64,000 bases of DNA from Mayamaea pseudoterrestris (lineage: Eukaryota): contig BROI01000029.1 of assembly GCA_027923505.1 (NCBI GenBank), positions 248,001-312,000 of the forward strand, in the 5' to 3' direction. A program made the position numbers and the translations under genes. Below the pieces are notes generated by a model. The model did not search any database. It was not told where the DNA came from and worked only from the letters and a program-made list of their open reading frames with translations. This document shows positions 2,868-35,016 of this stretch, piece after piece; the stretch's first letter is position 1, and each line of letters starts with the position of its first letter.

Positions 2868-4679
2868 ATGAATCAATTGTTAGACATTATTGCTGCATCA
2901 TCTTTCTTCAACGTTGCGACTGAAATATTAAGCAAATTGCCGAACCAAAGCACTCAGCTTTTACAAGAAGAGCTTGCACATCAGTCTTTTGTTAACAGGC
3001 TGTATTTTGCTATTTCCAATTGCTACGAGATTGTCATGACGACTACCGGCATCTTGCTTTTGCTATTTCTCGCAACCCTTGCCAAGCCATTTCAAACGAT
3101 TCGCTGGAGGAGGAACGCGAAAGGGACCGCGAAGCGTGTAGTGCCCGAGCCGACAATAGTAGGCGCAACATTGGAGGATGAATCTACTACTAGATCGAGT
3201 CAGCAGCGACCGCAGCAATGGATGCAAATGTGGAACGACTTTACGTCGCCACTGACATATCTCATGTCAAAGAATTTTAGCGATTCGCTCAACGAGACGG
3301 ACATTTCCGACGAGTTTGTCTTGACGCCTCGGCCATGCAACGTTCTGCATTTTTGCTTTTTGATGCATGGACATCGAGGCTATAGCCAAGACTTGGCCTA
3401 TTTGTCGGCGCAAATGCGCAAGGTCGCTCTGGCAAAGTTTGCAAAACAAAGTGATGGCTCGAATGAGCAATTTAATGACATTGTCTTGCATGCCATGGTT
3501 TGCAACGAAAAAAAGACGACCGATGGCGTGGTAAATGGTGGCGAGCGTGCGATTGAGGAAATGCTGGAAGTAATCAGACGAGGTGTTTTGGAACGACAAG
3601 CGATGGAGAACGATACTTTGAAATGCCAAGATATTACAATATCGGTCCTCGGAAATAGTCTTGGTGGTATCTATGCTCGATATGCAGTGGCCAAGTTAAC
3701 GGAACGATGGAACTGTACGACTGGAACTGAAGATGAACAATCGACCTTGTTTGCGACGATGAACAACCGAACATTTCGTGTTCACTACAATGTCTTTTGC
3801 ACGACGGCTACTCCTCACTTGGGTATTGCTGGGCATACATTTCTACCAATCCCTCGGTCAGCGGAAATTGGAGTTGCTCATGCCATGGGCAATACCGGGC
3901 GAGACTTGTTTCGATGTAACGATCTGCTCAAGGACATGGCCACTAGACGTGAATATCTTGAGCCCCTTGGCCGCTTTCGAAAACGAATAGCATACGCCAA
4001 TGCGTATGGGACTGATTTTCCTGTTCCAGCTCACACGGCTGCGTTTTTGAGCGAAACGTCAACCTACCCACATCATTTCTCAGACAACTGCAACGCTAGT
4101 AATGTTGTTGTTGAAGACGGTGGGCTCGTCGTCGCCACGCTGCACACTCCAGCATCCAGTGAGTACAGTAGTGGGACAGACTCTACCGATCTGCAGATGG
4201 ATGCTTGGGATGATGATTCGGAGGACCGTAGTGAGTTGGAGTTGATGTCGCAATCACTCGATGCACTGGGGTGGAAGAAAGTTTTCATCGACGTTCGAAA
4301 AGAGATTCCAAAGATTGCGCTACCAATAAGTTTCATTCGAAAAACAGTCACACAAATGACTAGTGGCGGCGAAGTGAATGAGAGCCTGATTGTGGTCGAC
4401 GAGGAGGCGTCGTCGCCGGAATTGATTGAACAGCTCAGAGAGCGAGGCGTGGTCGGATCGAAAGACATCGCAGCCGCTGTGACGGTACCTTTGTTCGATG
4501 AGCAATTTCATTGGCCGATGGGCCACAATATGATCGTAGCTTTCAGTCGATCGAAGTTCAGCGCTTATATGAATAAAGCCGGACGGCCTGTTGTCGATGC
4601 TCTCGCCAAGGCTTTAGTCGAGGAAATTTTTGCTTGGCAACTACCACGCTCAACGGAGCAGGGACACATTGAAGGTTGA
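2868..4679 (+). CDS. DUF676 putative serine esterase/lipase (alpha/beta hydrolase); true start may be a later Met near 3037
   Basis: HFCFLMHGHRG, KTTDGV, GNSLGG nucleophile elbow, TATPHLG, F-x-x-R-x-x-YAN motifs. Confidence 0.8.
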   Translation: MNQLLDIIAASSFFNVATEILSKLPNQSTQLLQEELAHQSFVNRLYFAISNCYEIVMTTTGILLLLFLATLAKPFQTIRWRRNAKGTAKRVVPEPTIVGATLEDESTTRSSQQRPQQWMQMWNDFTSPLTYLMSKNFSDSLNETDISDEFVLTPRPCNVLHFCFLMHGHRGYSQDLAYLSAQMRKVALAKFAKQSDGSNEQFNDIVLHAMVCNEKKTTDGVVNGGERAIEEMLEVIRRGVLERQAMENDTLKCQDITISVLGNSLGGIYARYAVAKLTERWNCTTGTEDEQSTLFATMNNRTFRVHYNVFCTTATPHLGIAGHTFLPIPRSAEIGVAHAMGNTGRDLFRCNDLLKDMATRREYLEPLGRFRKRIAYANAYGTDFPVPAHTAAFLSETSTYPHHFSDNCNASNVVVEDGGLVVATLHTPASSEYSSGTDSTDLQMDAWDDDSEDRSELELMSQSLDALGWKKVFIDVRKEIPKIALPISFIRKTVTQMTSGGEVNESLIVVDEEASSPELIEQLRERGVVGSKDIAAAVTVPLFDEQFHWPMGHNMIVAFSRSKFSAYMNKAGRPVVDALAKALVEEIFAWQLPRSTEQGHIEG

Positions 4680-5001
4680 TTTTTAGTACATAGTTTATAG
4701 CAGACCTTGCATCGCTTATTTTCCTAAGTTGCTATTGTAGAGCAGCTTGCCCCCTTCACTCTCTACGATAATCTGTCATGTTTTGCGATTTTAGTAGGCA
4801 TTTCCTCGTTTGCTAACGGAATCATAGCTATTATCCTCAGAAGGTTGTCGTCCGCTTTAATTTTTGGCTACTAAGTTTTATGCTAATATGATTTATATTC
4901 ACCGCTACTTCCAAGTATTCCGTTCGATCCAACTAGAGCAATCCCGCCATCAACCATAAAAACGCACAAAATCCAAGGCATTTTAAGTGACGCGGATGAC
5001 T

Positions 5002-6690
5002 TTAACGTTCAAGTCCCTGCCACTGCCAGATATCGCAAACTCGACCGTCAACATACATAATTCGAGAACCAACTCGTTCATCTCGATCGACTTGATTGTA
5101 AGCAGTCTTCCAAACACTGCTGACAAAACGAACCTGGGCCGCATAATTGCCTGGAAACATGCTGCTCTTGACTTCATCTCGAATAACATCAACTTTTACC
5201 CAGCCACTGGAAGCCTTGAGGTGATTGTACACCAAGACCTTGGCGCGTTGAACATCGTCGTTGTGTTTGCTCACCGCTTTGCATTTGCCTTGGACGGCGT
5301 AGACAATGCAGGCAACCAAACTGGCCGCAGCGCAAATCCAAAGGTGCTGGCGAAAGGCGGCCCCGAGGAATGAGACAGCCTTCTTGAAAAGCAAGCCCCA
5401 AATCAGCGCCTTAATCGAGTCCCAAGTCGAATTGATAGCGCGCTCAACGCGACACTCGGTTGGGAGCGCTAGCTGATGCACCAACTCCGAGGACAGGCCA
5501 ATCCAAACAGACTCCTTTTTCATTTCCAAATTCAATCCTGACGCGAGACCATTGACGAGGGCAAACTCGAGCCAGGCAGGCGTGTCGGCATCAATGGACG
5601 CATGCTCGTCCAACCCGTTCGCCAGGTCAAAGAAATCGACCATGAGTGAGCCTGTCCAGGATTCAGAGTTTCGGATCTTCATCGACGGTTGTTGAAAGCA
5701 CATGTCCGCCACTGTCAATTCTTTGAGACGGTGAATGATCATCTGCAAAGTGGCCTTGGCAGTAAGCGACAAGTCGCAAGACATGCGATCAGCGGACGGA
5801 ACAAACACCGAGGCTTTGAAGTGGTCAGCGCCGCATGAAATCAGCTCGCCGCCTTCACAACTTCCACCATTGGGGCAAGAAAATATCTTGTTCGTCGCAA
5901 CCGCCATGGCGCATCGTTCCGTATAGAATGTATCGCTCGAGTCCGAATTCACAAAGCATCGAGCGAGCTGAGGAACCGCGTAGGTTGTCATGACTGGCCA
6001 GCTCGTTGGCAATACCAAGACTCCAAGGATCGACAAATACCAGCAAACTGCAGCAGCGCAAGCAGAGAGTACAAGCTTGAGTAGTGCATTCTTCTTACGT
6101 CCACCGAGTCGGTTGGTAGAGACGCGAACATCACCAAAATCGCTTAACGTGGAGTCGCCATGCATACAATGATCCTCTTCAAAGTAAACAATAGAATTAG
6201 CAAAAGTAGCATCTTCAGTAGCGACTGCCGCCGCCAATGGAGCCATCGTCGATGCTGATTTTTTGCGAGAAACAGCCGTGCGAGCATGAACTTGCGGAGC
6301 AACGAAGGCAACGGGCTTGCAGACTGGAGTAGGAGCAACAGCAGCCAATGAAACTTGCTTCTGTACCTTCTTGACTCGTCCAGCCTTGCCAGCACTTTGT
6401 GAAGCAACGACTGGAGCAGGTTTCATTAGAGCGGCAATTGCTTGCGCCGCAATGAGATCATCAACTTCCTTCTTCGCAGCAGCCATTTCCTGAATGCGGA
6501 GCGCGTCTTGAGCAACCCAAAGCTTGGCCTTAAGGGCTTTCTCGGCCATTACCTCCTTTTTGCTTCGCTTGGCAGGTCGAACCATGTGGCTTTCGACCGA
6601 CTCCTCCGTCACGCTGGCGCATGACTTGCGCTTGCTACTGCTGGAAGGTGCAGCTTTGACAATCGCTTTGCGTTTGCGTGCGGGCGCCAT
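5002..6690 (-). CDS. Inner nuclear membrane protein, Man1/Src1 C-terminal (MSC) domain-like
   Basis: Basic NLS-rich N-terminus, two hydrophobic segments, luminal CPNGGSCEGG motif, C-terminal winged-helix-like end (D-x-RV...IWQW). Confidence 0.6.
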   Translation of the reverse strand: MAPARKRKAIVKAAPSSSSKRKSCASVTEESVESHMVRPAKRSKKEVMAEKALKAKLWVAQDALRIQEMAAAKKEVDDLIAAQAIAALMKPAPVVASQSAGKAGRVKKVQKQVSLAAVAPTPVCKPVAFVAPQVHARTAVSRKKSASTMAPLAAAVATEDATFANSIVYFEEDHCMHGDSTLSDFGDVRVSTNRLGGRKKNALLKLVLSACAAAVCWYLSILGVLVLPTSWPVMTTYAVPQLARCFVNSDSSDTFYTERCAMAVATNKIFSCPNGGSCEGGELISCGADHFKASVFVPSADRMSCDLSLTAKATLQMIIHRLKELTVADMCFQQPSMKIRNSESWTGSLMVDFFDLANGLDEHASIDADTPAWLEFALVNGLASGLNLEMKKESVWIGLSSELVHQLALPTECRVERAINSTWDSIKALIWGLLFKKAVSFLGAAFRQHLWICAAASLVACIVYAVQGKCKAVSKHNDDVQRAKVLVYNHLKASSGWVKVDVIRDEVKSSMFPGNYAAQVRFVSSVWKTAYNQVDRDERVGSRIMYVDGRVCDIWQWQGLER

Positions 6691-21618: not shown

Positions 21619-22770
21619 TTATTTTGGTTGTATCCACGCCTCCCTGATTCGGTCCCGTTGACCTGCGCCTGTCGAACTTGGCCGAACAGCCGTTGTATTC
21701 CTCTTGGCGGCCACGGAGATTCGATGATGCTGCGGATGGGAAGTGGTAACTTCGTACTTTGCTGGCGTTGTCCGTTTCAAATGAGCATTGCCTGACGATC
21801 GACTTGTCCGACCATCGCGTCGCACACCTGGTCCACTCGCCGACGCTGGAGTTTCGTCCCACAACTGTCCAATCAGCAATGTCAACAACGCACCCATTAA
21901 CCCCAGAACGATTCCCAAAATTCCTTGCCAGGATGGTGGAGATGTTTCCTTGACAACGAGTTGGGTGCGTCGGTGCTTTACATATGCGTCAATCTTGCTC
22001 AGAATGGTGCGGACCCTTCGCTTGCTTTGGGCTATGCGAAACTTGCGCAGCACGAGACGGTATCGGCTTTGCTGTTGCTCATTCTCAGCTTGACTCGAGT
22101 CATCATTCAAAGGGTCCAGGTAGTCTCTGATTGCCTCCAGATTTTTGACAGGCTGATCATTATAGTCACCACCTTCATGCACTTGGTTCTCTGCTGCTGC
22201 CGAATTAGTCTCTTGATCCGTCAAGACGAGCGCATACGAAACGTAATGCCCATTTGCATCAGGTCCCTTGGAGCTCGGTTTGCCAGGTGGTGAATACTTT
22301 TTTCCTTTCTTATATTGCTGCTGCTGCCGATTCGCCATGTAGTCGTCGTTAACGTTGGGCTCACCTTCCACGTACGCGCCTTGCGCATCCGTCTTGACAG
22401 CCACACCTTCCAGCAACTGCCGCCGCGGAAACTCGAAACGAATCTTGCGCCCCCATCCGAGCGGCATGATTTGCAACTCGCACGTAGTGATGCGACAGTT
22501 CAAGTGAATGTAAGCGTTCGAGTAGCGTATCCAGCGAATGCCCATGTACAACAAAAAGAGGAAGAATAGTAGACTGCAGTACGTGGCGCGAGTGGCGAAA
22601 CTTGTTTTGTGCCAAGACTTGACAATGGACTTTTCTAAACGAATGTTACGGGCCGAGCCGTCGTTGGGGTTGGACCGAAAGGTGAAGTTTGATGATCGTG
22701 CATTGTTTCCGGATGTCGTCGGGAGGCCTTGGTTGTGATTGCGACGACGAAAGAATGAGGAAAGTGCCAT
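21619..22770 (-). CDS. Hypothetical two-pass membrane protein
   Basis: 383-aa ORF with two hydrophobic helices flanking a soluble domain. Confidence 0.6.
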   Translation of the reverse strand: MALSSFFRRRNHNQGLPTTSGNNARSSNFTFRSNPNDGSARNIRLEKSIVKSWHKTSFATRATYCSLLFFLFLLYMGIRWIRYSNAYIHLNCRITTCELQIMPLGWGRKIRFEFPRRQLLEGVAVKTDAQGAYVEGEPNVNDDYMANRQQQQYKKGKKYSPPGKPSSKGPDANGHYVSYALVLTDQETNSAAAENQVHEGGDYNDQPVKNLEAIRDYLDPLNDDSSQAENEQQQSRYRLVLRKFRIAQSKRRVRTILSKIDAYVKHRRTQLVVKETSPPSWQGILGIVLGLMGALLTLLIGQLWDETPASASGPGVRRDGRTSRSSGNAHLKRTTPAKYEVTTSHPQHHRISVAAKRNTTAVRPSSTGAGQRDRIREAWIQPK

Positions 22771-23181
22771 GTCCCAGCAGCTAAAAAAGACTTTTGAGTT
22801 CGGTAATGTTCAATTGGAGTGTTTCGCACTCGGGATGTGGATTGGATGATTGGATCAGGTCGTGTTTCTGCTCACCACAAGAATTGCTGCTCACCAATGA
22901 GTGCGCCGTTTCCAAACTTGAAAATGTGCTACAATTTCGGCAGCTCTGCCTCACAAACTACAACCTTCGATGGAGACTAACACTTGCTTGTAGAATAACT
23001 GACTACTATGTGGCTGCAGGCAATGGAGAATGTTCGCTCCATGGCCGTCGGCAGGCAGAAGCTTATGAATGAGGCCGCTCAGTGCTGCATGTCGTACCGG
23101 TAACTTTGTGAACCGATGAGACGCTTCAAAGATCTTCCGCGAACGACGGCCACACAAAAAGCTATCGCCACATCTTTCACC

Positions 23182-24850
23182 ATGGTTGATGCTGCAGCAA
23201 CGGCTGTCAATTCCGAGGTCGGAGCAATAAGCGATCCTCCATGCCGCGTCTTGGCGCGCAGCAAGACCAAGGTGGAGTTTTTTGTGGTGTCGGAGCGAAA
23301 TGGAGGTGCAGCTGCATCAGCCCCTTCTCCGACGGTCCTTCATGCCGGCCCGACATCATGGCAACAGTACGCTCCAGATGGAAGCTGCGTTTATCTGCAA
23401 ACGCCAAAGGGAGTACTCAAGATTGACTTGACGAATGACAAGCTAGAGCCGAATGGAGACGCCACGCCGTTTCTGCAAAGCACGACTGCAAGCGCCATTC
23501 AGATGATGCATGTTTCGCCTTCGGGATCCTTTTTATTGACTTGGCAACGGCCGACTCCCGATGATGCCAATAATCTAAAACTATGGAGCGCTTTAGATGG
23601 AGCTTTACTAGCGAGTTGGCCACAAAAGCAGCTCCGTCGCGAGTCCTGGCCAACGCTACAATGGACTTATGATGAAAGGTACGCCTTGCTTCTGGTTCAA
23701 AATGAAATTCGCGTTTATCCACAAACAACCATACGAGCAGCTGGCAAGGATTCGAGCAATACACGGTTTACGGACAAAATTCGCGTGCAAAACGTTAGCT
23801 GTCTGAGTGTCGCGCCGCAAGCCAAAAACGGCAGCCCCTACTACTTTACCACCTTTTGTCCGGGAGGCAAAGACAAGCCGGCTCGAGGTGCCTTTCAGGA
23901 ATACATTCCTGGTCAACCTGACTTGCCGGCTCGTTTATCAAAATCATTGTTTCAAGCTGAAGAAATGAAGTCGCATTGGAGTCCTCAAGGTGATGCCGTT
24001 CTGATATCGCTCCAAACATCGGTTGATCATTCGGGTCAGTCCTACTACGGCAGCTCCCAAGTCTTTCTCATGGCAGACTTTGTCACGGATGCTGTAGCAG
24101 TCGAAGGCGTCACTCCGCCCGTCATGGCTGTCGAGTGGATGCCTCACCCGGAACGACCGCCGGCCTTTATTGTTGTCGCAGGCAAAATGCCAGCTTTGGC
24201 GTCCCTGCACCACGGCCGCACGGGCAAGCCAACCTTTTTGTTTGGGCAAGCGCACCGCAACACTGTACACTGGAGTCCGCATGGAAGATTCGTGTTGATC
24301 GGAGGATTTGGGAACTTGGCGGGTGGCATGAGCTTTTGGGACAAGAATAAATGCAAGCTAGTGTCGGGGTGTGCGGCGAATGTGAACAACCAGTTGAGAG
24401 CAGAAGCTGTTGTTGGATGCCATTGGTCTCCCGATAGTCGCATGGTGCTGACTAGTACAACATCACCGAGGATGAATGTTGATAATGGCATGCGACTGTT
24501 CAAGTACAACGGAAGCGAACTGAAAACTCTTCCGTGGGACAATGCTGCGTATCGACCTGATCAGTTGTTGGAAGCCACCTTTGTGCCGGCGAATGTTGAT
24601 GTATATCCGGATCGACCGCAAAGTCCCAACCTAGTGGAGCAAGAGCAACAACAATTGCAGAAGCAACAAGTACCCGGCAAGGCAAACGGACCAGTGATTT
24701 TTACCAAAGCTCTGCCTTCGTCATCTGCAGTAGAAGACTCGAAGCCAGTTGCGCGCTACGTTCCTCCGTCAGCGCGAGGAAGGGCAGGGGGCGGAACTAG
24801 CCTGGCGGAACGCATGCGAAAAGAAAAGGAAGGAAGCCTGCAGCAGGCCA
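23182..24850 (+). CDS. EIF2A: Eukaryotic translation initiation factor 2A, 5' part (beta-propeller), interrupted by retrotransposon
   Basis: SGQSYYG, HRNTVHWSPHGRFVLIGGFGNLAG, TTSPRMNVDNG, YVPPSAR motifs typical of eIF2A. Confidence 0.92.
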
Positions 24851-25151
24851 TCTTTGCCGCAGCTGAAAGCGGAAGGAAAAGACTACACTATATGTTACAG
24901 TCGCCAGCGTGGCGACACCATACGGCTTTGAAAGCTGCGTGGTTGCAGATAAGCCCCTGAGCGTGTTGAAGAGCATCCTTTGATCCTCCTTCGCCCTGCT
25001 CGGAGCCATTCTTTTGAAGAAGGCAAGCTCCTTCCAAGCAGCCCCTCCTGTTGTTGTTGTTGTTGTTGCTACAGTCGCTTGTCCTTTGATTCCTTTAGAG
25101 AGCTGCCTCGAGTGCTGCTTTTGACAAGGAAAGAAGATAGAATTAAGTGCA
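24851..25151 (+). repeat. Split direct repeat A1 (301 bp)
   Basis: Matches 31500-31803 apart from one TGT microsatellite unit (6 vs 7 copies). Confidence 0.95.
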
Positions 25152-25158
25152 TTCCTCC

Positions 25159-27313
25159 ATGGCCGCCGTCAATGGAGCTGACGCCGCTGCCGCAGCCGCC
25201 GCCATTCCTTTTGCCGGGGCCACTCTCCCTACGGTCACCTTCCTTGCCCGTTACAGTCAGGCAAGTAATGATCCTTTGAACGGTGAATACAATGGTTTGA
25301 ACGGTCTCACTCGCACTGCCGATCCTCCTTTAACTGCAGCTGATTGCTTTAAAGGTTTGGTCGACACGCCCTTGGAGACCGCTCCCATCCTTGTTGCTGC
25401 CTTGGTCGAGGCCGACCAGCCTCTGCATGGTTGCATTCACGCCATTGTCGGGGCCCAGCGGTACCTTGCCGTTGCAGGTCGCACCAACCGCTGGGACAAT
25501 CGAGTCATCGGTTTTGGTACGGAGGTTTTCCAAGGCACGGCAGGCCTCGTCGAACTGACGGTGGCAGATTTTCATCTCAGTCCATTGAACGGGCACTTCA
25601 CAAATGTGCCAGCGACATTGGCACAAACAATGGAGCGATTGCAAGGCTTGCCTGCTGGCACTGAGTATTTGCCTCCATTGCAGCCGGTTGACGAAGACGA
25701 TGCGACCATTGTCCAAGGTCGTGCGCGGATGGTTCAGGCCTTGCCCGTGCGGTTCGCACCGCTGGTGATTGGGCAGGGTTTTACGCGGCGCGAATTCTTC
25801 GACCGTTTGGCGCCGGCTATTATTGATGCGGGGCTGGAACATGTCTTGACCAACCTTTGCACTTGGCTAAAGCTATTGGTTACTTGCCGAGCCGCTGATG
25901 GAGTGCCTACTATTCCAGGGAATTGCACGAGCCGCACCGAGCTGGGATGCCGATGTGGCCCGGTTCACCTCGACCAACTTGCGGCGCCTCTTGCCGGACT
26001 TGTTCGCCCAACCCGATCCAAATCAAAGTGCTTTGGTCAACCTTCTGGAGCGCCAAGCTAATGATGCAGCCGAAGTCCGAGCCCGTGAAGAGGCTCGCGC
26101 CGAAGCAGCCAAGGCACCCAAGAAAGTCTCCGACATTTTAACTGCGACACAATTACGGCGCACTAGCATCATGCTACGCATTGCTTCACCAAGTGGCTAT
26201 CCCGAACTGCACCACCTCCTAGCCGCCACGGCTGACAAGGACAAGCGCAAGGTAGTGCAAGACCATCTAGTTGAGGGTGCGGTGGCAGCGGGTAACCAAG
26301 ACTATGCTCCTATTGTGACGCCGCACATTAGCCGACGGCTTCAAGATGGAGACTTTGCAGGCGCCGACAAGGATGATTTTAGTGGAGGCATCAATGTCTT
26401 CATGATGGTACCACCCAATCTGACTGTTCTCCAAGGCTCAAACATGTCAGCTGAAGTCCTCCAAGCGGCGCAGGCGCATGACGACATCCTAAGTGGCGGT
26501 CATGCAATCACCTACCAAGATACTAAGGAGCTCCAGGCTGTTACTTCCAAAGTGGTGCTGCCAACCAACTACTTCCTGGCAGCACGCATGTGCCGGGCCT
26601 ACCTAATCCTCCTCACACAGTACTTTGGGGAAGATCATGAGCTTGTCTGCACATTGGAGCATTGGACCAAGACATTTGAAGCCAACATTCCTACCTATCA
26701 GCACGCCTTGGCTAGCCTTGGTGAGCAGGGACCCTCCCTCATGCTGCGAGCAGTCCAAGTCCGCTTCCACCGTTGGTTCAAGACTATGGAGACTTCTCCC
26801 ACCTACAAGGCCGTCCCGGATCTGGCCAGTGTCATGGAGGACTTGGAAATTGGCAATCTCTCTGTCCTGCCTCCTTTGCCTGCCAAGTATTGCACTCAAC
26901 TAAGCAAGCAACTCAACAAGGCAGCCGACATCCCAGGATCCATCAAGGTTGGTAGCAGTGTCAACAGCAAAGGCACTCATACCACCGCAGCTTCTACTTT
27001 GACTGGTGCAAGCGGCAACAGTCCTTCTACCAAGGCGAATGAGGTGGTCATCAACCTGGATTACAACCCAGCCTTTGAAGCCTTCCAGAAGGACAAGCGC
27101 CAACTCCGCTTGATGAGGAAGAATCCCGAGGACAAGAGTTGGCCCACCAAGGATAGCATCCCAGGACTCGCTACTGCTCCCTGCATGGCTTATCATTTGC
27201 GTGGCAAATGTGACTCATTGTGCAAGCGCAAAGCCGACCACATCCAGCATAGTCAGGCAGCTGATGATGCCTTGTTGGCTTGGGCATTGGAGCATCTTGA
27301 GCCCCGCAATTGA
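25159..27313 (+). CDS. Retrotransposon Gag-like ORF1 with C-terminal Cys/His zinc finger; +1 frameshift near 25918-25922
   Basis: Overlapping ORFs 25147-26061 and 25898-27313 join as ...PTIPG/IARAAPSW...; CMAYHLRGKCDSLCKRKADH finger. Confidence 0.75.
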
Positions 27314-30300
27314 CGGTCCGGCGGGCGGATCCCTATATGTTATAATCCGCTGACGCCTGCAACCTCTGCTGTTCCACCATCCAGAGTCGCAGGTCCAGTT
27401 GTCGAAAATGAAGAAGTAGTTCCAGTAATTAAGTCGCCCAGTAGTAAACGTTTTAAATCTACTGTGTCACCTGTCCTATCTCCTGAACTTGGTAAGCAAG
27501 CTGGCGTGCATGTTGTGCAGAAAGAACCATTGTTACTGCCCACACCACGTCTCTTGCCTACTGCTGCCAGGAATGTAATCAAATTGGCCTCTGTCCCCGG
27601 TCCCACTGCGTCCCTGGTCCAAGTCCAAGCAAGTCAACTCCAAGCAAGTCGTCAAGTTGTCCGCCCTGAGTGTCGTCCAACCTTGGCTCCTAGCACCAAT
27701 CCATCTGTTGCCGTCACACCTACACACCAGGCTGTGGCTTCTCCAGGCCCCCTTGAATCGTCTGTCGCCGTCGCACCTGAGGATGTGGCTTCTCCAGGCC
27801 TTCACACCGCTGATGCCTCTCCAGTGGCTGCTCCAGTCCCATGTACTGGCGCCTCCCCAGTTGTGGTGTCACACCAAGCCATGGCTCCACACTTGGTTGC
27901 CAGCAAGGCTGCTCCTACCATGGCACCACACTTGGCATTCAGCAAGGCTGCTCCACTCTCAATGGAAGCCACTGCTGCACCTGCACAGTCACCTGCCATG
28001 GCAACTGGCTGGGCTCCACACTGGGCCTCTCAGCCAAAGGCACACGACCTGGTCTCCCCAAAGGCATCTGCACCTCCTTGCACTTTGCCTGGCAGTCTTC
28101 CTACATCCAAGTTGCCTTCACACACCAACACCTCATCCTTGCAACTACTTGATGATGAATTGGGGCAGCTGGTTCAGGAGGCATCTGCACGTCTTGCTTT
28201 GTCTCCGGATTGGCGTGCCTTTGTGGAGGCCAGCCGCGGCGCCTCTGACTTACAGCCCAGCGTCAAGGATCTGGATCATCCAGCTGCACATTTGCTACAC
28301 CAATTGGATGCACGTGGCGCACCAGCCATTATGCAGAAAAAGCCTTGGACACTAGCACAAAAGCAAATGGCGCTCAAGAGGGGCCCTCACAAGTCTGCCT
28401 TTGAACACACTGCTTTTCTGCGGGAGGAGTTCACTGACATGATCAAGAAAGGCCACTGGACCGTCCTACCAGCCTCACAGGTCCTTGGAATGGAACAACT
28501 CCGACTCAGTCCACTTGGTGTTGTGCCTCAGCGCGACCGGCGACCTCGGACCATCTCCGACTACAGCTACTTTGGGGTCAATGATGACACTGCTGCAGTT
28601 GCGCCACTGGAGTCCATGCAGTTTGGCCGCACTTTTTATCGTTTGCTGCAACGCATTGCTCGAGCCAACCCCCGCTATGGGCCCGTCCACATGTCCAAGT
28701 TGGATATTGCTGATGGATTTTACCGTGTGCGTTTGCTGCCTGGAGATATCCCCAAGCTTGGTGTCTTGTTTCCTCAGTGTGCTGGTGAGGAGCCTCTGAT
28801 TGCTTTTCCACTCACACTGCCGATGGGTTGGATTCATTCTCCACCCTATTTCTGTGCAGTGACAGAGACCATTTGTGACTTAGCCAATCAAGCCTTCCAG
28901 TGTGGTGCCAAGTCACCACCGCCTCACCGTCTGGAGTTACAAGCTCAAACCTTACCAGCTACCACCACTCCAACACCCCTGCCTGGAAGTGTGCCCGCAC
29001 AAGGCTCTGTCCCACCTATTGTGACTGTGGAGGATATGCCCATCAATGATCCTAGTGTGGCGCCTCTTCCTGCTCCACGCCAGCGCTCTGATATCCTCCA
29101 GCGTCCTGTTGCATACAATGACTTGTATGTGGATGACTTGATTGCTTTAGCCCAAGGCAATCCGGATCGGCTGCTAAGGTTGCAACGTGTTCTCCTGCAC
29201 ACATTTGACCAAGTTCTACGCCCACTGGAGCCCACTGACTTACCTGCTCGTCAAGAACCAGTGTCTGTCAAGAAGTTACTCAAAGGAGATGGTGCTTGGA
29301 CCACTCGCAAGCAAGTCCTGGGTTGGTTGGTTGATACCGTCGCCATGACTGTTGCATTGCCAGCCCATCGCCTGGAACGCCTACGTGAGATCCTAGCTAG
29401 TATCCCTCCTACTCGGCGCCGCATTGCCACCAAGCAGTGGCACAAGTTCTTGGCGAGCTGCGCTCCATGTCCTTGGCCATTCCTGGCAGCCGTGGTCTGT
29501 TCAGTTCCTTGCAAGAGGCCTTTCGCCATCCTGATGGTCACTCTGGTCGTTTGCGGTTGACCCAGGCAGTGCATGACTTTCTGGAAGATTTTCGATGGAT
29601 TGCGGCTGGTCTAGAGACACGACCAACACGCATTGCTGAATTGATTCCTGATGACCCGGCTATTGTGGGCACTACTGATGCATCTGGTCGTGGCGCTGGG
29701 GCCGTGGCCTTTGTCTCCATGCCCACCAATGCCCTACAACCAATCTTGTGGCGTGCCAGGTTCCCTCCTCACATTGAGGCGGACTTGGTGAGTTTTGACA
29801 ACCCACATGGCACTATTACCAATAGTGATTTGGAATTGTTTGGGACGGTTCTCCATCATGATGTTTTGGCACACAATTTTGACATACGTGAGCGCACCAT
29901 TCACACCTCCCATGACAACACTCCGGCTGTCGCTTGGCAGCGCAAGGGCTCTACTACCTCCACTGGCCCAGCAGCATACCTCCTCCGATGCCAGTCCTTG
30001 CATCAACGCACACATCGCTATGTTCCCCTCCATGATTACATTCCTGGTCCAGTGAATGAAATGGCGGACAAGGCCTCCCGTTTGTGGCATTTGTCTGACT
30101 CTGAATTACTCACCTACTTTAACACTCATTACCCACAGCCTCTACCTTGGCAACTGTACCAACCACGACCCGCGATGCTTTCTACCATGATTACCGCACT
30201 GTCCAAGACCAGATCCGTGCCGGAGTCGTTCCTTCAAGAGCCGCCTCCGCGGACAAGCATTGGGCCTCATGGTGTGACTTCTGTCTTGAACACCATCTCG

Positions 30301-30672
30301 ACCCTTTCCTCAAAACCTTGGATGACCCAGTCCCAACTCTCCAAGTCTGGGCAACCCGTTACCGCGATGGCCGACTCTCCGCCAGCGGTCAACCCGTCCG
30401 CGCTGCAACAGTGGCGGACGCCATCCGTGCGGTGGGCCAGACGTTCGCCCGCATGGGGTCCCACGACATTCGACAAGATTCCTGTGGCAAAATTGACTAC
30501 CGGCTGCAGCAACAATTTAAATGCTGGCACCGCGAAGATCCAGCCCCTACTCGCGTCAAACCAATTCCGGTCACCATTGTGCAACACATCCTGGCCCAAG
30601 CCTATTCTGGACCAGGCTCACCTGCCCTGCAAACCTTTGCCGACATCATCACCCTGGGTTTCTTCTTCTTGA
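27314..30672 (+). CDS. Retrotransposon Pol: Pro/Ala-rich linker, reverse transcriptase and RNase H; -1 frameshift near 29443-29447
   Basis: LSPLGVVPQRDRRPRTISDYS, KLDIADGFYRV, LPMGWIHSPPYFC, YVDD; RNase H TTDASG, NSDLEL, DNTPAVAW, ADKASR; frame open from 27314. Confidence 0.92.
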
Positions 30673-31295
30673 TGCGCCCTGGTGAGTACACTGGCACCCA
30701 CGGTGGCAACACCCCACCACTACGCCTAGGTGCAGTCCAACTCTGTCTGGGTTCCCGCCGTCTTGATCTCTTTGCTGCACCAGCTGCAGATTTGTTGGCG
30801 GCTTCCCAGGTGTCGTTCACATTTGATAATCAGAAAAATGGTGTCCGCGGTGAAGTCATTAGCCAAGGCCGCACTGGCTTGTTCCATTGCTGTCCGGTGC
30901 TTGCTGCTGCTCGGCGCATTCTTTATTTGCGTGAGCATGGTGCTACTGCCCACACACCGCTTGCAACCTACTGGTGTGCTAATCGTCCTCTTGGCGTCAA
31001 GAATGGGGAGATTACGCGCACCCTTCGCAATGCTGTCATCGCACTTGGTCCTACCCTGGGCTTAGACCCCTCCGACATTGAGGCTCGCTCCCTGCGCGCT
31101 GGTGGTGCTATGGCTCTCCTCAATGGCGGCTGCGATGACAATATTATAAAATTGATGGGCCGCTGGCGTTCTGACGCAATGCTACGCTACCTGCATGGCA
31201 CTGCTGCTCACACCACCGGCTACGCTGCTCGCATGGTCCAAGGTGGCACCTACACCCTGGTCCCTGGCACCTTTGTCCCGCAGCAGCCCATCTAA
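30123..31295 (+). CDS. Retrotransposon tyrosine recombinase (overlaps the pol 3' end, no 5' ATG)
   Basis: FFFLMRPGEY (R), NQKNG (K), CCPV, RSLRAGGA (R), GRWRSDAMLRYL (W, catalytic Y). Confidence 0.92.
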   Translation, partial: HSLPTASTLATVPTTTRDAFYHDYRTVQDQIRAGVVPSRAASADKHWASWCDFCLEHHLDPFLKTLDDPVPTLQVWATRYRDGRLSASGQPVRAATVADAIRAVGQTFARMGSHDIRQDSCGKIDYRLQQQFKCWHREDPAPTRVKPIPVTIVQHILAQAYSGPGSPALQTFADIITLGFFFLMRPGEYTGTHGGNTPPLRLGAVQLCLGSRRLDLFAAPAADLLAASQVSFTFDNQKNGVRGEVISQGRTGLFHCCPVLAAARRILYLREHGATAHTPLATYWCANRPLGVKNGEITRTLRNAVIALGPTLGLDPSDIEARSLRAGGAMALLNGGCDDNIIKLMGRWRSDAMLRYLHGTAAHTTGYAARMVQGGTYTLVPGTFVPQQPI

Positions 31296-31381
31296 CCTAC
31301 CCACCACACTCGCTTCGCTCGTTTCCCACCCGTCTCTTTGGGTGTCCTTTGTCCTCCAAGATGAAAAGTGGGTGGCAAGGA

Positions 31382-31499
31382 GGCGCACGCCTTGGGGCGG
31401 CGAGGAGGCAAATTAAGTAAAATGCCTTACTCTCCACCCAACTGTGTGCCATCCTTAAAACCCTGTAGCTGGAAGTAGTGGCTAAGACGGGGAAACCCG
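31382..31499 (+). repeat. Split direct repeat B1 (118 bp)
   Basis: Identical to 31822-31939; abuts A2. Confidence 0.95.
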
Positions 31500-31803
31500 T
31501 CTTTGCCGCAGCTGAAAGCGGAAGGAAAAGACTACACTATATGTTACAGTCGCCAGCGTGGCGACACCATACGGCTTTGAAAGCTGCGTGGTTGCAGATA
31601 AGCCCCTGAGCGTGTTGAAGAGCATCCTTTGATCCTCCTTCGCCCTGCTCGGAGCCATTCTTTTGAAGAAGGCAAGCTCCTTCCAAGCAGCCCCTCCTGT
31701 TGTTGTTGTTGTTGTTGTTGCTACAGTCGCTTGTCCTTTGATTCCTTTAGAGAGCTGCCTCGAGTGCTGCTTTTGACAAGGAAAGAAGATAGAATTAAGT
31801 GCA
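31500..31803 (+). repeat. Split direct repeat A2 (304 bp)
   Basis: Copy of 24851-25151 with one extra TGT. Confidence 0.95.
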
Positions 31804-31821
31804 CCCACCCTCCCGTCCCTC

Positions 31822-31939
31822 GGCGCACGCCTTGGGGCGGCGAGGAGGCAAATTAAGTAAAATGCCTTACTCTCCACCCAACTGTGTGCCATCCTTAAAA
31901 CCCTGTAGCTGGAAGTAGTGGCTAAGACGGGGAAACCCG
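31822..31939 (+). repeat. Split direct repeat B2 (118 bp), right end of element
   Basis: Identical to 31382-31499; separated from A2 by an 18-bp C-rich spacer. Confidence 0.95.
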
Positions 31940-32304
31940 CTAAGATAGATGCCAAGAAACCAATACCAGCAACCGTCAAGAGTGCGCTGACTGGTAAAGC
32001 GATTCCTGGTTTAGTAGCTGACACGGGTAAGAGTGCTTCTGCTTTGAAACGAGAGAAGCAAAAACTCAAGAAGCAGCAAGAGGAAGCCAAGCAGAAGCAA
32101 CAGGAGATACTTGAACAACAACAGCAACAAGCGGAAGCCCAAGAGCCAGTAGATCCTGCTAAAAGAAGTAAGAAAATCAACAAAATATTGAAGCAGATTG
32201 ATGAACTGAAAACCAAGGATCCATCTGCGCTTGACGAGGATCAAAAGGCAAAGATTGCGTCGGAAGCTGGTCTACGGGAAGAGCTTAAGAAGCTAGGAAT
32301 ATAA
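31940..32304 (+). CDS. EIF2A: eIF2A 3' part (C-terminal coiled coil)
   Basis: [17 protein letters not shown]...[12 protein letters not shown]...EL resembles the eIF2A C-terminus; in frame with the 5' part once the element is removed (GCC A|CT AAG ATA). Confidence 0.88.
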
Positions 32305-32331
32305 TGAGGTTAAGCATACTGTAATATCCTT

Positions 32332-34620
32332 CTAGCTAAGTCGTCGCAATATTCGCATCGCAAGTTGCCCCCTTTCCTCGTCGAGGCCTTCTATTTGTAT
32401 CCGTACGCCGTCACCGCGTGCAAGTGGCCCATCGATGCTATCTGATACGAATGCGACACCAATTGGAACATTCTCAAGACTTGGTTCAACATATAACCAG
32501 TCGCCAGTATTGGACGTAGCTTTCACTAGGCCGTCGCATTCTTTGCCGAGTAAATTTTGAATCTGATCCAGGCCTCCGAGTTGCTTCGACAATCGCGACA
32601 ATCTTTTTGTTACCTCGCTTTCTCGTTTTAAATCTTGTGGACTCTTATCTTGCGTGGATGCGTCCATCGTCAATGAAAATTGTCCCGAGTTCTTGGAGAC
32701 GGACTTGACAAAAACGTCCACTTCATCGCCAACTTTGAGAAATTGAGGCCTAGGCAGAGCCTTTGCACTTGCTGTAATGTGTGAACGAACTTTTAAGGTC
32801 TCGTCAGTGTCAGCGTCGTCATTCGCCTCTCTCGTTCCCGTGCCCTTGTAAGACAGCGTGCCATCGTCATTTTGTTCAAACATGTGCGTAATATCTGCAT
32901 CGTCTCCTTCTGCGTAAACAACATGCTTTTCGCCGGTAGCAGGATCCATAAAGGTCAGTGAACCATCGTTGCCGTGCTCAAACAAGTGTGTCACGTCCTC
33001 CAAATCGTCGTCATCCTCCGTCATGAGCATTTCTGTTTCGCCCGTGTCTGGATTCGCAAATGTCAGCGACCCATCATCATTCTCTTGGAAAAGATGAGTA
33101 ATGTCTTCACTCTCTTCTCCGTCTTCGTCAAAATCAGCAGCATCGAAATTAAGTTCGCTAAGCATTTCTTCCGCTCCTTCGTCCTCGTCATCGGACCAAT
33201 CATCATCTCCAAACTCTTCCTCTTCCTCGTCATGATTGCATTCTGTGTGTAACTTTTGTGACGATCTGTCCTGAGCCGCTACAGCGTCGCGAAAATTTAA
33301 GCGTCCCCAGCACTTTGCCCATGACTTATCCTTGCGTAGCCGGCGTATGCCACAGTCAATCAATGCACCACCCTTGGCTAGTCGCACCACTGTGCCCCGC
33401 AATTCCATACCAACCGATAATTCATCTAAACGGTATCCAAAATGCTTTGATGATGATGTTGACGGAACTTCATCAAGGTCCGCCTTCGCAACATCGTCGC
33501 TGGACGAAGAGTCTCCCTTTTGTGAGCGATCCCGAGTCGAACGTCCAGGATTCAAGGCGACGACCAACAGAGGCGAACCCGCATCGCCGGCTGGATCATA
33601 GTCAAACACCGCAGCTTGGTGCAAACTTCCATTTTCAATGGCTGCTTCAAGTGAGAAGTCGTTAGCCTTGCTTGGATGTATGCGAAGCGCGGCTGATAAA
33701 GGTCGGACGCTGTAATACTTGCTGTGTGTGCTGTCTTTCGACCTTTGTTTGGGATTTCTGATGCGAACCATGCCAGTATGTTGCAATGCAGCCGCAGCGG
33801 CATCGTCTTGATCATTCTCAATGTCATCGGCAACTTGAAATTGCAGTACCGCAGCGGTTTGTGCGCGTCGCTGGGCCCGCATCCTGGATGTCGCTGCTTG
33901 AAGCAACAAACGACTATTTCCGTCAGCTTCTTCCTTTTTCACAAGCTTGACTCCATGTGCATCCTGTATTTGCTTGCTGGAGAATAATGCTTTGACTAGT
34001 TCATTCACATCTTCGTAGCCGAGGTTCGCAGCCTCTTGCCGGAGACTCGACTTCAAGTGCGACCGATATCGCTGCGCCAATTCCACCGCATCCAGTTGAA
34101 TGCCTCCTTGAACACTTCCAGCAGATTGTCCAAACTTGTCCAGCAGATATACCAAGTTGCGTGTGACGGATGACGCGCGATCAACACTCAAAATGCTGCA
34201 GGGCACCAGTAGCGGGCTTCCCGACCGCCGCCGCTTCTTCCACGCTTTGCGAGCCCGACTGACATCGCCGACTTGAATGTTGAGAATGGATCCAGGCATG
34301 AATGCAGAATAGAATGTATTTGATGGACTTGTTTGTGTCATGAATTCTGTCAACGAGGATTCTTCGTCATCGCTAGAAGCGGAGATGACTTCCTCGTCCA
34401 CGACCTTCTCGACAAGAGCATCTTCTTCGTCTTCATCGTCAGACACAAAGTATTCTGGAACCTTTCGTTTCGATGGTTTATTGAATAGCCGCGTCGGGCT
34501 GTGTTTGTAACTCGATCCAATGATACATTGCTCTTGTCGAAATGGACGATGTGAAATCGAAAATGCCGATGACTCGCTCGCAAATGTCGTCAGGAACAGA
34601 GAAATGAGGTAAATATTCAT
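32332..34620 (-). CDS. Plastid-targeted S1 (OB-fold) RNA-binding domain protein
   Basis: Signal peptide ending SSAF; S1-like segments LSVGMELRGTVVRLAKGGALIDCG and LKVGDEVDVFVKSVSKNSGQFSLTM. Confidence 0.7.
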   Translation of the reverse strand: MNIYLISLFLTTFASESSAFSISHRPFRQEQCIIGSSYKHSPTRLFNKPSKRKVPEYFVSDDEDEEDALVEKVVDEEVISASSDDEESSLTEFMTQTSPSNTFYSAFMPGSILNIQVGDVSRARKAWKKRRRSGSPLLVPCSILSVDRASSVTRNLVYLLDKFGQSAGSVQGGIQLDAVELAQRYRSHLKSSLRQEAANLGYEDVNELVKALFSSKQIQDAHGVKLVKKEEADGNSRLLLQAATSRMRAQRRAQTAAVLQFQVADDIENDQDDAAAAALQHTGMVRIRNPKQRSKDSTHSKYYSVRPLSAALRIHPSKANDFSLEAAIENGSLHQAAVFDYDPAGDAGSPLLVVALNPGRSTRDRSQKGDSSSSDDVAKADLDEVPSTSSSKHFGYRLDELSVGMELRGTVVRLAKGGALIDCGIRRLRKDKSWAKCWGRLNFRDAVAAQDRSSQKLHTECNHDEEEEEFGDDDWSDDEDEGAEEMLSELNFDAADFDEDGEESEDITHLFQENDDGSLTFANPDTGETEMLMTEDDDDLEDVTHLFEHGNDGSLTFMDPATGEKHVVYAEGDDADITHMFEQNDDGTLSYKGTGTREANDDADTDETLKVRSHITASAKALPRPQFLKVGDEVDVFVKSVSKNSGQFSLTMDASTQDKSPQDLKRESEVTKRLSRLSKQLGGLDQIQNLLGKECDGLVKATSNTGDWLYVEPSLENVPIGVAFVSDSIDGPLARGDGVRIQIEGLDEERGQLAMRILRRLS

Positions 34621-35016
34621 TATGCTCTTTCGTTTATAACAGTGATGGATATCTTTGTTTGTTTTTTGGAAAGCAAGCTTTTGTTGCTGGGCTGATCTAT
34701 GCTGCAAAGAATGGAAAACGATTGGCGCTGCGAGAAAGATGATGTTCATTGCCGCTGCGATGTCAAGCTACTTTCGTTTAACTGTAAGTGTACCGATAAG
34801 CTTGATCACAGGTGCACGGAAACGGAGCATGATGACCGATACAGTACTCTATCTCTTAGTATTGTTCTATTCATAAGCTTATTGGAGTGCCAAGAGACAG
34901 CAAGCACAAGATCACCCATTGAGGTGATCATGGACAAGCTTTTATGACGAGACGAGCCATCCTCTTCAAATCAACAGCACCAACTTCCTTACGAGTACAG
35001 CTCCTATTAATACCCT

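Follow-up and report, generated by a model that had tools for sequence, protein, structure and literature searches.

Within the genome of the diatom Mayamaea pseudoterrestris (assembly GCA_027923505.1, contig BROI01000029.1, positions 248,001 to 312,000 of the forward strand), the coding sequence for the translation factor eIF2A breaks off and resumes 7,089 bp further downstream, which raises the questions of what kind of element separates the two parts, how recently it arrived there and whether it belongs to a family that still moves. This 64,000-nt stretch, referred to as the window in the following, had been the subject of an original prediction made from the sequence alone, in which positions 24851-31939 were taken for a complete and young retrotransposon of the Ngaro/PAT type. 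On the basis of repeat structure, modeled protein folds, assembled sequence reads and comparison with metagenomic relatives, we conclude with considerable confidence that 24851-31939 is a Ngaro-like retrotransposon of the order DIRS with the layout A1-gag-RT/RNase H-YR-B1 A2 (18 nt) B2 (RT, reverse transcriptase; RNase H or RH, ribonuclease H; YR, tyrosine recombinase) and that it constitutes a recent conservative insertion in eIF2A. The Mayamaea element is a further member of an already known element class, the classification of which is unchanged by our findings.

The split direct repeats that enclose gag, RT/RNase H and YR were reproduced both by a repeat search of positions 23500-33500 and by global alignment. 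The search yielded one long repeat pair (24848-25068 and 31497-31717) extended by a second one (25037-25151 and 31689-31803), while the other three repeat families within this 10-kb region span 36-115 nt only. Resolved into their individual copies, all of them read on the forward strand like every other part of the element, the 5' terminal repeat A1 (24851-25151, 301 nt) contains a (TGT)n microsatellite, and its counterpart A2 (31500-31803, 304 nt) departs from it solely by one extra TGT in this run. B1 (31382-31499) and B2 (31822-31939), the latter forming the 3' end of the element, comprise 118 nt each and are 100% identical. B1 adjoins A2 without a gap, and the resulting B1|A2 junction has the sequence of joined element ends (end of B2 plus start of A1). 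A2 and B2 are separated by a spacer of 18 nt (31804-31821), and a gap of the same length lies between repeat copies in the metagenomic relatives L050 and L013. At 301 and 118 nt, the perfect repeats by far exceed what chance would produce. Inverted repeats of at least 30 nt are absent from 23500-33500, there is no further copy or fragment of the element within the window, and a scan of 24700-32100 against Rfam gave one chance-level match only (E=0.93). The GC content of the element amounts to 0.54-0.55 vs. 0.47-0.51 in its flanks.

With regard to the insertion site, the 5' part of the host gene (23116-24850, forward strand, 578 codons plus 1 nt) is recognized as eIF2A by Pfam (PF08662, E=1e-49). 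As assembled, its frame enters A1 and stops at 24960, whereas fusion of 23116-24850 with the sequence from 31940 onward generates an uninterrupted frame of 699 codons that extends to 32304, the 3' part (31940-32304, forward strand, stop codon at 32302-32304) continuing the frame of the 5' part exactly. Since the rejoined frame is open, the element resides inside the coding sequence and no base has been duplicated or lost; in line with this, no target-site duplication was found, the flanks rejoining exactly and in frame. The insertion site is the C-terminal coding region of eIF2A, and the insertion may represent a heterozygous knockout of this factor. The interrupted gene as assembled lacks 121 codons at its end and gains 36 codons that are read from A1.

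Contigs from the Logan resource for four sequencing runs were compared with positions 22500-34500, bearing in mind that such contigs document presence and not absence. One contig of run X1 (1,962 nt), the depth of which (35.9) equals that of the flanks, represents the empty site: it joins 24850 to 31942 with two letters in between, matches the computed rejoin in length and differs from it by one synonymous letter. The same contig deviates from the window at six positions in the 106 nt that precede the site and at 13 positions in the 1,854 nt that follow, which assigns it to another haplotype or strain. Run X3, on the other hand, exhibits the letters of the window next to the 5' junction as well as a contig leading from 31911 in B2 into the 3' flank, and no empty-site joint was listed for it. 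M. pseudoterrestris has been reported to be diploid with a heterozygosity of 2.97%, its genome having been assembled from Nanopore reads, polished with short reads and purged of haplotigs (PMC9724779); these published values fit a heterozygous insertion and do not constitute proof of it. At the crossover itself, the target and the B|A junction have no more in common than 'CC', two bases to the left of the junction. Three left and three right flanks share no common motif, these being too few sites for a conclusion; a trinucleotide or microhomology at the crossover has been proposed for DIRS elements (PMC7192593).

An origin of the insertion, or of its repeat layout, in faulty assembly, for instance through a mis-joined repeat or a duplicated end, is considered very improbable. 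Such a view could draw on the nature of the data, as only contigs were available, the reads seem to be cut at the (TGT)n runs, none of the listed contigs was shown to bridge the 5' junction or to span B1-A2-B2, so that contigs cannot confirm the order of these repeats, and the contig over the 3' junction in X3 reaches only 29 nt into B2 and thus stays below the 31-nt minimum. An artefact is, however, difficult to reconcile with flanks that rejoin to the base and in frame, just as they do in the independent empty-site contig, with the X3 contig that passes from B2 into the 3' flank, and with the recurrence of the A-18 nt-B and B|A layout in unrelated metagenome contigs and in Ngaro elements as published (PMC8547959).

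The interior of the element holds five open reading frames (ORFs) on the same strand, i.e., 25147-26061 (frame 1), 25871-27313 (frame 2), 27314-29560 (frame 2), 29401-30672 (frame 1) and 30123-31295 (frame 3). The first part of pol (27314-29451 in frame 2, within the stop-to-stop ORF 27314-29560) starts directly behind the stop of the preceding 25871-27313 frame with 189 open codons for a linker rich in Pro, Ser, Ala and Val, in which the Pol model shows disorder over the 86 residues that follow the first ATG, and then encodes the RT with YVDD at 29126-29137. The second part (29452-30672, frame 1) specifies the connection, an RNase H with D 29677, E 29833, D 29914 and D 30067, and a disordered tail; D600, E652, D679 and D730 are invariant in the RNase H region of the corresponding alignment. 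A word-limited search scored 761 relatives of the RT among 8,000 candidates. The closest one, P0001, is a 930-aa hypothetical protein of M. pseudoterrestris with 99% identity, and nearly all of the others are metagenome proteins with 45-60% identity from contigs of about 6 kb; the best named matches thus stem from M. pseudoterrestris itself, in agreement with the diatom-like genome suspected originally. One Pol relative (P0090, 550 aa, on a contig of 2,458 nt) is filed under the bacterium Janthinobacterium sp. and probably reflects eukaryotic contamination of a bacterial assembly.

As neither P0001 (phmmer) nor a YR family profile found any match among PDB sequences, folds had to be used instead. 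A profile of the RT family matches HIV-1 RT around motif A (E=0.0022), and RVT_1 was detected in 14 of 28 Pol relatives with a best E-value of 6e-6. The AlphaFold (AF2) model of Pol, built from an alignment of 28 sequences, has a pLDDT of 75, with confident folding of residues 90-360 and 400-790. In structure comparison it matches RT or RT plus RNase H chains of CaMV, MLV, HERV-K, foamy virus, Ty3 and HIV-1 with E-values of 5e-13 to 1e-10, the alignments with RT plus RNase H chains covering about 700 columns. Together with the repeats and with the Cre-like fold of the YR described below, this bears out the earlier claim of a tyrosine-recombinase retrotransposon with split direct repeats.

The end of Pol is decisive for the distinction between the two types that the original prediction had combined as "Ngaro/PAT". 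The element might conceivably be a PAT-like or DIRS1-like representative of this order, given that PAT-like elements are reported to have split direct repeats and, in some cases, a zinc finger in gag, and that a Pat1 lineage in Caenorhabditis briggsae is proposed to have lost the methyltransferase (all PMC4157794). In the Mayamaea element, on the other hand, no folded domain follows the RNase H: pLDDT values drop below 50 in Pol residues 792-831 and 856-930, and this disorder of the tail implies that there is no methyltransferase domain. Besides RVT_1, no Pfam family was detected in any of the 28 Pol relatives at E<=0.01. Inverted terminal repeats are likewise lacking (0 found), and the Atlas clusters nearest to a YR homologue with 52% identity are labelled Bacillariophyta, Basidiomycota and Mollusca, which we treat as a lead only; Ngaro elements have been reported from molluscs (PMC4157794), and a separate study is devoted to those of fungi (PMC3783388). 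We therefore retain the Ngaro-like half of the designation on structural grounds, drop the PAT-like half and regard a PAT-like or DIRS1-like identity as improbable.

The YR is encoded in frame 3 by 30123-31295, i.e., in the -1 frame relative to pol with an overlap of 550 nt; the conserved part of its N-terminus sets in at TTG 30147-30149, and the first ATG is located at 30453. Tyrosine recombinases usually carry the signature R ... K ... H-x-x-R ... H/W ... Y. A word-limited search found 1,336 homologues. In an alignment of 20 YRs, all share R185, K238, R325, W348 and Y356, and the position assigned to the usual His of H-x-x-R is taken by an equally invariant Arg (R322, 20/20), the register to Cre being derived from the motif and the fold match. 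Residues 322-325, thus reading Arg-x-x-Arg, are encoded at 31086-31097, and the Phage_integrase model stays below threshold. The AF2 model of the YR (pLDDT 79) matches Cre in Foldseek with E=5e-7 and a TM-score of 0.53-0.62 and also resembles Tn1549 integrase, lambda integrase (lambda Int) and XerA.

That the recombinase is an integral component was deduced from the family architecture, which was derived from 80 metagenome loci (L001-L080), frame counts being based on the 32 loci of at least 5 kb. In 32/32 of the latter, the YR lies in the -1 frame relative to Pol and overlaps the Pol tail, and this conservation shows that it is part of the element. Hardly any probability remains for an ordinary retrotransposon of the Copia or Gypsy type with long terminal repeats (LTRs) or for a retroelement with a nested Crypton DNA transposon, even though Ty1/Copia elements have been reported as the main repeats of M. 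pseudoterrestris (PMC9724779) and Cryptons occur in Phaeodactylum tricornutum (PMC3212892), as Pfam revealed neither a DDE integrase (rve) nor a protease and there is neither an LTR pair nor a target-site duplication.

Taken together, we found an LTR-type RT/RNase H, a YR instead of a DDE integrase, the arrangement A1-[ORFs]-B1A2B2 and the order gag-RT/RH-YR on one strand, combined with the absence of a methyltransferase and of a target-site duplication. Membership in the Ngaro-like group is structural only, and several points weigh against our interpretation. It has been argued that structural features of this kind are homoplasious (PMC4157794). The YR possesses RxxR, where HxxR has been reported for the Ngaro YRs of Cafeteria (PMC8547959). 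None of the element ORFs has a Pfam match at E<=0.01; up to E<=10 only sub-threshold matches appear, i.e., RVT_1 (E=0.036), Phage_integrase (E=0.17) and zf-CCCH_12 (E=0.035). Furthermore, the YR of the window has no ATG ahead of residue 111, and gag and pol of this copy are frameshifted as assembled (25918-25920 and 29450-29451).

These frameshifts bear on whether the copy in the window is complete. The original designation as complete applies in part only, given the two 1-nt frameshifts in the assembly and a TTG in the YR frame where some relatives have ATG. The first frameshift affects the GGG run at 25918-25920 in gag, and the second one the GG run at 29450-29451, where the copy is 1 nt short and RT thumb and RNase H are thrown into different frames. 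Contigs of 4/4 runs contain one base fewer at 25918 and an extra G after 29451, at full depth at these positions, and the run lengths of the contigs would merge the gag pieces into one frame of about 717 codons. P0001 reads ...WHKFLGELRSM... through the second site.

Whether this copy is dead, or correctly inserted and mis-assembled at two G-runs, is a nearly even choice, and we place the former just short of an even chance. In that case both frameshifts would be real, and a copy that was dead on arrival or mutated since, and hence non-autonomous, would have been moved in trans by intact copies such as the one encoding P0001. The difference between window and contigs in all four runs speaks for this, as do the intactness of P0001 from the same species at the second site and the reported activity of DIRS-1 RT in trans (PMC7192593). 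Mis-assembly, conversely, is suggested by the fact that both differences are length changes in a short G-run (GGG vs. GG and GG vs. GGG), a typical residual error of Nanopore assembly, and by the polishing of this Nanopore genome with short reads (PMC9724779), which cannot be placed uniquely in a multi-copy element. In addition, Logan contigs drop rare variants and cannot, therefore, show the state of this particular copy.

Irrespective of its intactness, the insertion is young. Its repeats exhibit no substitution in 301+118 bp (419 bp), the flanks of the two site versions differ by at least 0.7%, and the split-direct-repeat model implies that A1 equals A2 and B1 equals B2 at the time of insertion (PMC6681497). 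P0001, which is encoded on another M. pseudoterrestris contig, differs from the Pol of the window at 8 of 928 compared residues. The empty-site contig and this annotated Pol with 99% identity establish that the insertion is both young and polymorphic, thus confirming the very recent insertion proposed earlier. When contig depths are summed, the element reaches about 3-6 times the value of its flanks (114-139 vs. 31-55 in X1 and 500-976 vs. 76-142 in X3), a ratio that is not to be read as a copy number, and loose contig ends at the start of A and the end of B run into other flanks. Taken as a whole, these data point to several near-identical copies located at different sites and to at least one insertion that is not fixed. 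The suspicion of a possibly active family is consequently justified with respect to recent mobility, as evidenced by near-identical copies and the unfixed insertion, while the copy in the window itself is frameshifted as assembled. Two runs labelled as other organisms in the same study as X3 (X6 and X7) also contain pieces of the element over 24892-31684, with 0-5 differences, depths of 2-5 and almost no flanks; these could stem from a shared element family, from close relatives or from library carry-over.

The metagenomic relatives preserve the organization of the Mayamaea element. RT and RH occupy one frame in 30 of the 32 loci of at least 5 kb; the order gag, RT/RH, YR is kept in unpermuted relatives of this size, and permuted unit-length contigs fit the same cyclic order. 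A local repeat after the YR was seen in only 5 of the 24 contigs with at least 800 nt in this region, two of them clean: L050 has 355 nt twice with an 18-nt gap and L027 has 421 nt twice with an 11-nt gap. L013 features A-18 nt-B followed by A. In 16 of the 32 contigs of at least 5 kb, start and end overlap, corresponding to cyclic assembly at unit length. Cyclic contigs were rejected as evidence of circular DNA, as a de Bruijn graph yields them from A1/A2 anyway. More than one related unit is arranged head to tail in L013 (1-8958) and L036 (1-8352), with periods of 5,766 and 6,161 nt, and L050 contains BA-18 nt-BA at 4674-5401; these arrangements either represent tandem arrays, as would result from YR-mediated integration into a copy already in place, or reflect cycles in the graph of the assembly.

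Upstream of pol, gag is divided by the first frameshift into a 5' part in frame 1 (25159-25920, within the ORF 25159-26061) and a 3' part in frame 2 (25918-27313, within the stop-to-stop ORF 25871-27313). Gag did not match any detectable protein family. Its C-terminus nonetheless carries a zinc knuckle C-x8-C-x3-C-x5-H (27182-27241), the region of the sub-threshold zf-CCCH_12 match, and this CCCH knuckle is present in all 31 loci with sufficient upstream sequence, the window included. Relatives of gag retrieved by tblastn comprise 8 loci with 21-28% identity, and gagA and gagB are joined in one frame in L034 and L059. A search for gag homologues gave a single match, P0241 (M. pseudoterrestris MPSEU_000020600, 466 aa), with 60% identity over 27% of the query; within the same species, it may stand for a second family that has diverged or for a gene derived from gag.

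The transition from gag to pol follows one and the same pattern throughout. In 33/33 rows, the window among them, in which it was possible to locate the in-frame stop that comes first upstream of the RT, gag and pol are separated by one in-frame stop that is preceded by a long ORF in the same frame. This ORF comprises 686-750 codons in 14 of 19 relatives not cut by the contig end and 594 in one, vs. 480 in the window, and in the metagenome loci the frame is open from the gag stop through into the RT. TGA accounts for 21 of these stops, TAG for 11 and TAA for one, and the occurrence of three different stop codons at the same site rules out a reassigned codon. TAG is followed by G in 11/11 rows, and the bases +7 to +9 after the stop are GGY in 31/33 rows (stop-N6-GGY). 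A conserved common frame interrupted by a single stop is what Gag-Pol readthrough predicts and, at the level of sequence, suggests such a mechanism.

In the window, the candidate readthrough signal extends over 27311-27357 and consists of TGA-C (stop codon at 27311-27313), a 6-nt spacer and a predicted 38-nt hairpin (27320-27357) based on conserved GGC...GCC. The TGA-CGG context is one that we take to be a known leaky stop context. The hairpin has a folding energy of -15.3 kcal/mol (z=-2.06), and in the window as well as in GC-richer relatives it opens at the conserved GGC and closes on the conserved GCC. Values of z<-2 were obtained for 8 of 31 sequences vs. 1 of 31 control windows. A helix of ten pairs was paired in 62.5% of cells vs. 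56.4% in shuffled alignments (1/500 of which reach this value) and 44-52% in slid ones, with a covariation score of 0.263 vs. 0.178 for shuffles (0/500) and 0.13-0.20 for slid alignments. Opposed to this are a signal that is weak overall (mean z -1.05 vs. -0.42 in controls, Mann-Whitney p=0.07), the failure of RNAalifold to return a consensus structure for 24 and 16 post-stop sequences, and the derivation of the tested ten-pair helix from some of the same sequences. The post-stop hairpin is, therefore, suggestive only. To our knowledge, neither the arrangement of gag, stop and pol in the same frame nor a largely ATG-less YR has been described for Ngaro elements, and a full-text literature search, judged by titles, yielded no relevant paper on readthrough in this group.

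The second unusual aspect of expression concerns the start of the YR. Its conserved N-terminal domain begins at TTG 30147-30149 in the context ACC TTG G, where some relatives have ATG. The X6 contig covering 29907-30258 does not differ from the window, and the TTG is hence not restricted to the copy in the window. Upstream of the conserved DPVPxLQV motif, at a distance of 45-80 codons, only 13 of 48 loci provide an ATG. Among 40 distinct loci, the aligned codon is TTG in 14, CTG in 10, ATG in 6, GTG in one and another codon in 9, i.e., NTG in 31/40, and a purine at -3 is combined with G at +4 in 21/40. The prevalence of NTG arises because the overlapping Pol frame reads [P/S]-W at this position. 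The protein might be started by near-cognate initiation, by a shift out of the Pol frame or by translation of a processed RNA; no -1 slippery heptamer was seen by eye in 30121-30200, a systematic search not having been made.

These features can be combined into a proposed life cycle. According to the published split-direct-repeat model, a transcript shorter than the element would be reverse-transcribed by the element's own RT/RNase H, the internal B1|A2 junction with its joined-ends sequence would serve to restore both ends, and the Cre-fold YR would recombine the product into the chromosome. Gag-Pol might be formed by readthrough of the single gag stop (TGA-C), possibly aided by the hairpin 6 nt downstream, and the -1 frame, in overlap with the Pol tail, would be translated into the YR. 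Integration via a circular complementary DNA (cDNA), which the original prediction had presented as established, is a model only: the cDNA of DIRS-1 has been reported to be mostly linear and single-stranded, and a circle junction could not be amplified (PMC7192593).

Going one step further, we tentatively place the Mayamaea element in a large, mostly environmental Ngaro-like clade below Pfam thresholds that uses stop-N6-GGY plus hairpin for readthrough, possesses an AUG-less YR with Arg-x-x-Arg (NUG start in a Kozak-like context) and is mobile now, having knocked out an eIF2A allele; in this full form the proposal is possible and probably goes too far. Should it hold, the still unproven cycle by which YR retrotransposons with split direct repeats replicate and integrate would become tractable in this system. 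YR retrotransposons are the least understood retrotransposon order, and their replication model is reported to have been tested experimentally for DIRS-1 alone (PMC7192593). A clean, very young and polymorphic insertion with a known empty site provides a practical handle on integration, on circular or linear intermediates and on expression, in a host with a genome of 30 Mb that grows readily in culture (PMC9724779). Elements of this type can disrupt genes, in the present case an eIF2A allele. The comparison across the family also shows that annotation based on Pfam misses a large environmental clade, and it provides testable features at the family level, namely possible readthrough of the gag stop, the ATG-less YR in the -1 frame and the RxxR variant.

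The notion of a poorly described lineage, in contrast, was overstated, since elements of the DIRS order are already part of diatom transposon annotations. Fourteen DIRS copies have been reported for P. tricornutum (PMC5859163), a DIRS category is included in the annotation for Fragilariopsis cylindrus (10.1101/2025.04.02.646770), and LTR/Ngaro accounts for 0.1-0.3 Mb in Chaetoceros muelleri (10.64898/2026.04.27.720831). DIRS/Ngaro-like elements have likewise been reported for Ectocarpus (PMC3145265), while Copia was named as the main repeat class of M. pseudoterrestris (PMC9724779). A description of the anatomy of a diatom DIRS/Ngaro element did not emerge from those portions of the literature on diatom Ngaro and Phaeodactylum DIRS elements that were accessible. 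Next to the element, the minus strand encodes an 805-aa acidic protein rich in Asp and Glu (32332-34749), beginning 28 nt past the eIF2A stop.

Compared with known systems, the gag-pol region resembles the MLV-type Gag-Pol of gammaretroviruses, which likewise has a common frame, one stop, a short spacer and a G-rich structured region. This likeness is restricted to the mode of expression and does not include any sequence relation; in the Mayamaea clade the stop is TGA, TAG or TAA and the structure is a predicted simple hairpin with modest covariation support. VIPER elements carry the YR ORF upstream of RT/RNase H and reside in kinetoplastid hosts. A VIPER-like identity was ruled out by the location of the YR downstream of RT/RNase H and by the diatom host, split direct repeats having been reported for VIPER as well (PMC6681497). 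With DIRS-1 of Dictyostelium, the Mayamaea element shares RT/RNase H plus YR and the internal carriage of joined ends, in the form of the internal complementary region (ICR) there and of B1|A2 here; the ICR has been reported to be experimentally essential in DIRS-1 (PMC7192593). DIRS-1 differs by inverted terminal repeats combined with the ICR, a methyltransferase and another ORF order, whereas the Mayamaea element is devoid of inverted repeats. PAT-like elements (Pat1, kangaroo, Toc3) are similar with respect to A1/B1/A2/B2, the YR and, in Pat1, a zinc finger in gag (PMC4157794). They are set apart by a methyltransferase after the RNase H, which the Mayamaea element does not have.

The Ngaro-like superfamily comprises zebrafish DrNgaro1 as well as fungal, cnidarian and mollusc members (Poulter & Goodwin 2005; Goodwin & Poulter 2004). 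It agrees with the Mayamaea element in the possession of a YR, the lack of a methyltransferase and split direct repeats with internal copies downstream of the YR (PMC4157794, PMC6681497). Within this superfamily, the Ngaro elements of Cafeteria burkhardae (Hackl et al. 2021, PMC8547959) lend themselves to comparison by description, not by sequence. Their domains were reported as detectable with Pfam (PF00078, PF17919, PF00589) and their YR has His-x-x-Arg, while the Mayamaea element is sub-threshold and has Arg-x-x-Arg; moreover, one Cafeteria type is reported to insert mainly into endogenous virophages, whereas the Mayamaea copy sits in a host exon. In other respects the two correspond: the Cafeteria elements are described with the layout A1-[ORFs]-B1A2B2, GAG, RT/RH and YR in the same ORF order, a length of 6-7 kb, a GC content above that of their surroundings, a stramenopile host and insertions that are polymorphic between strains (PMC8547959).

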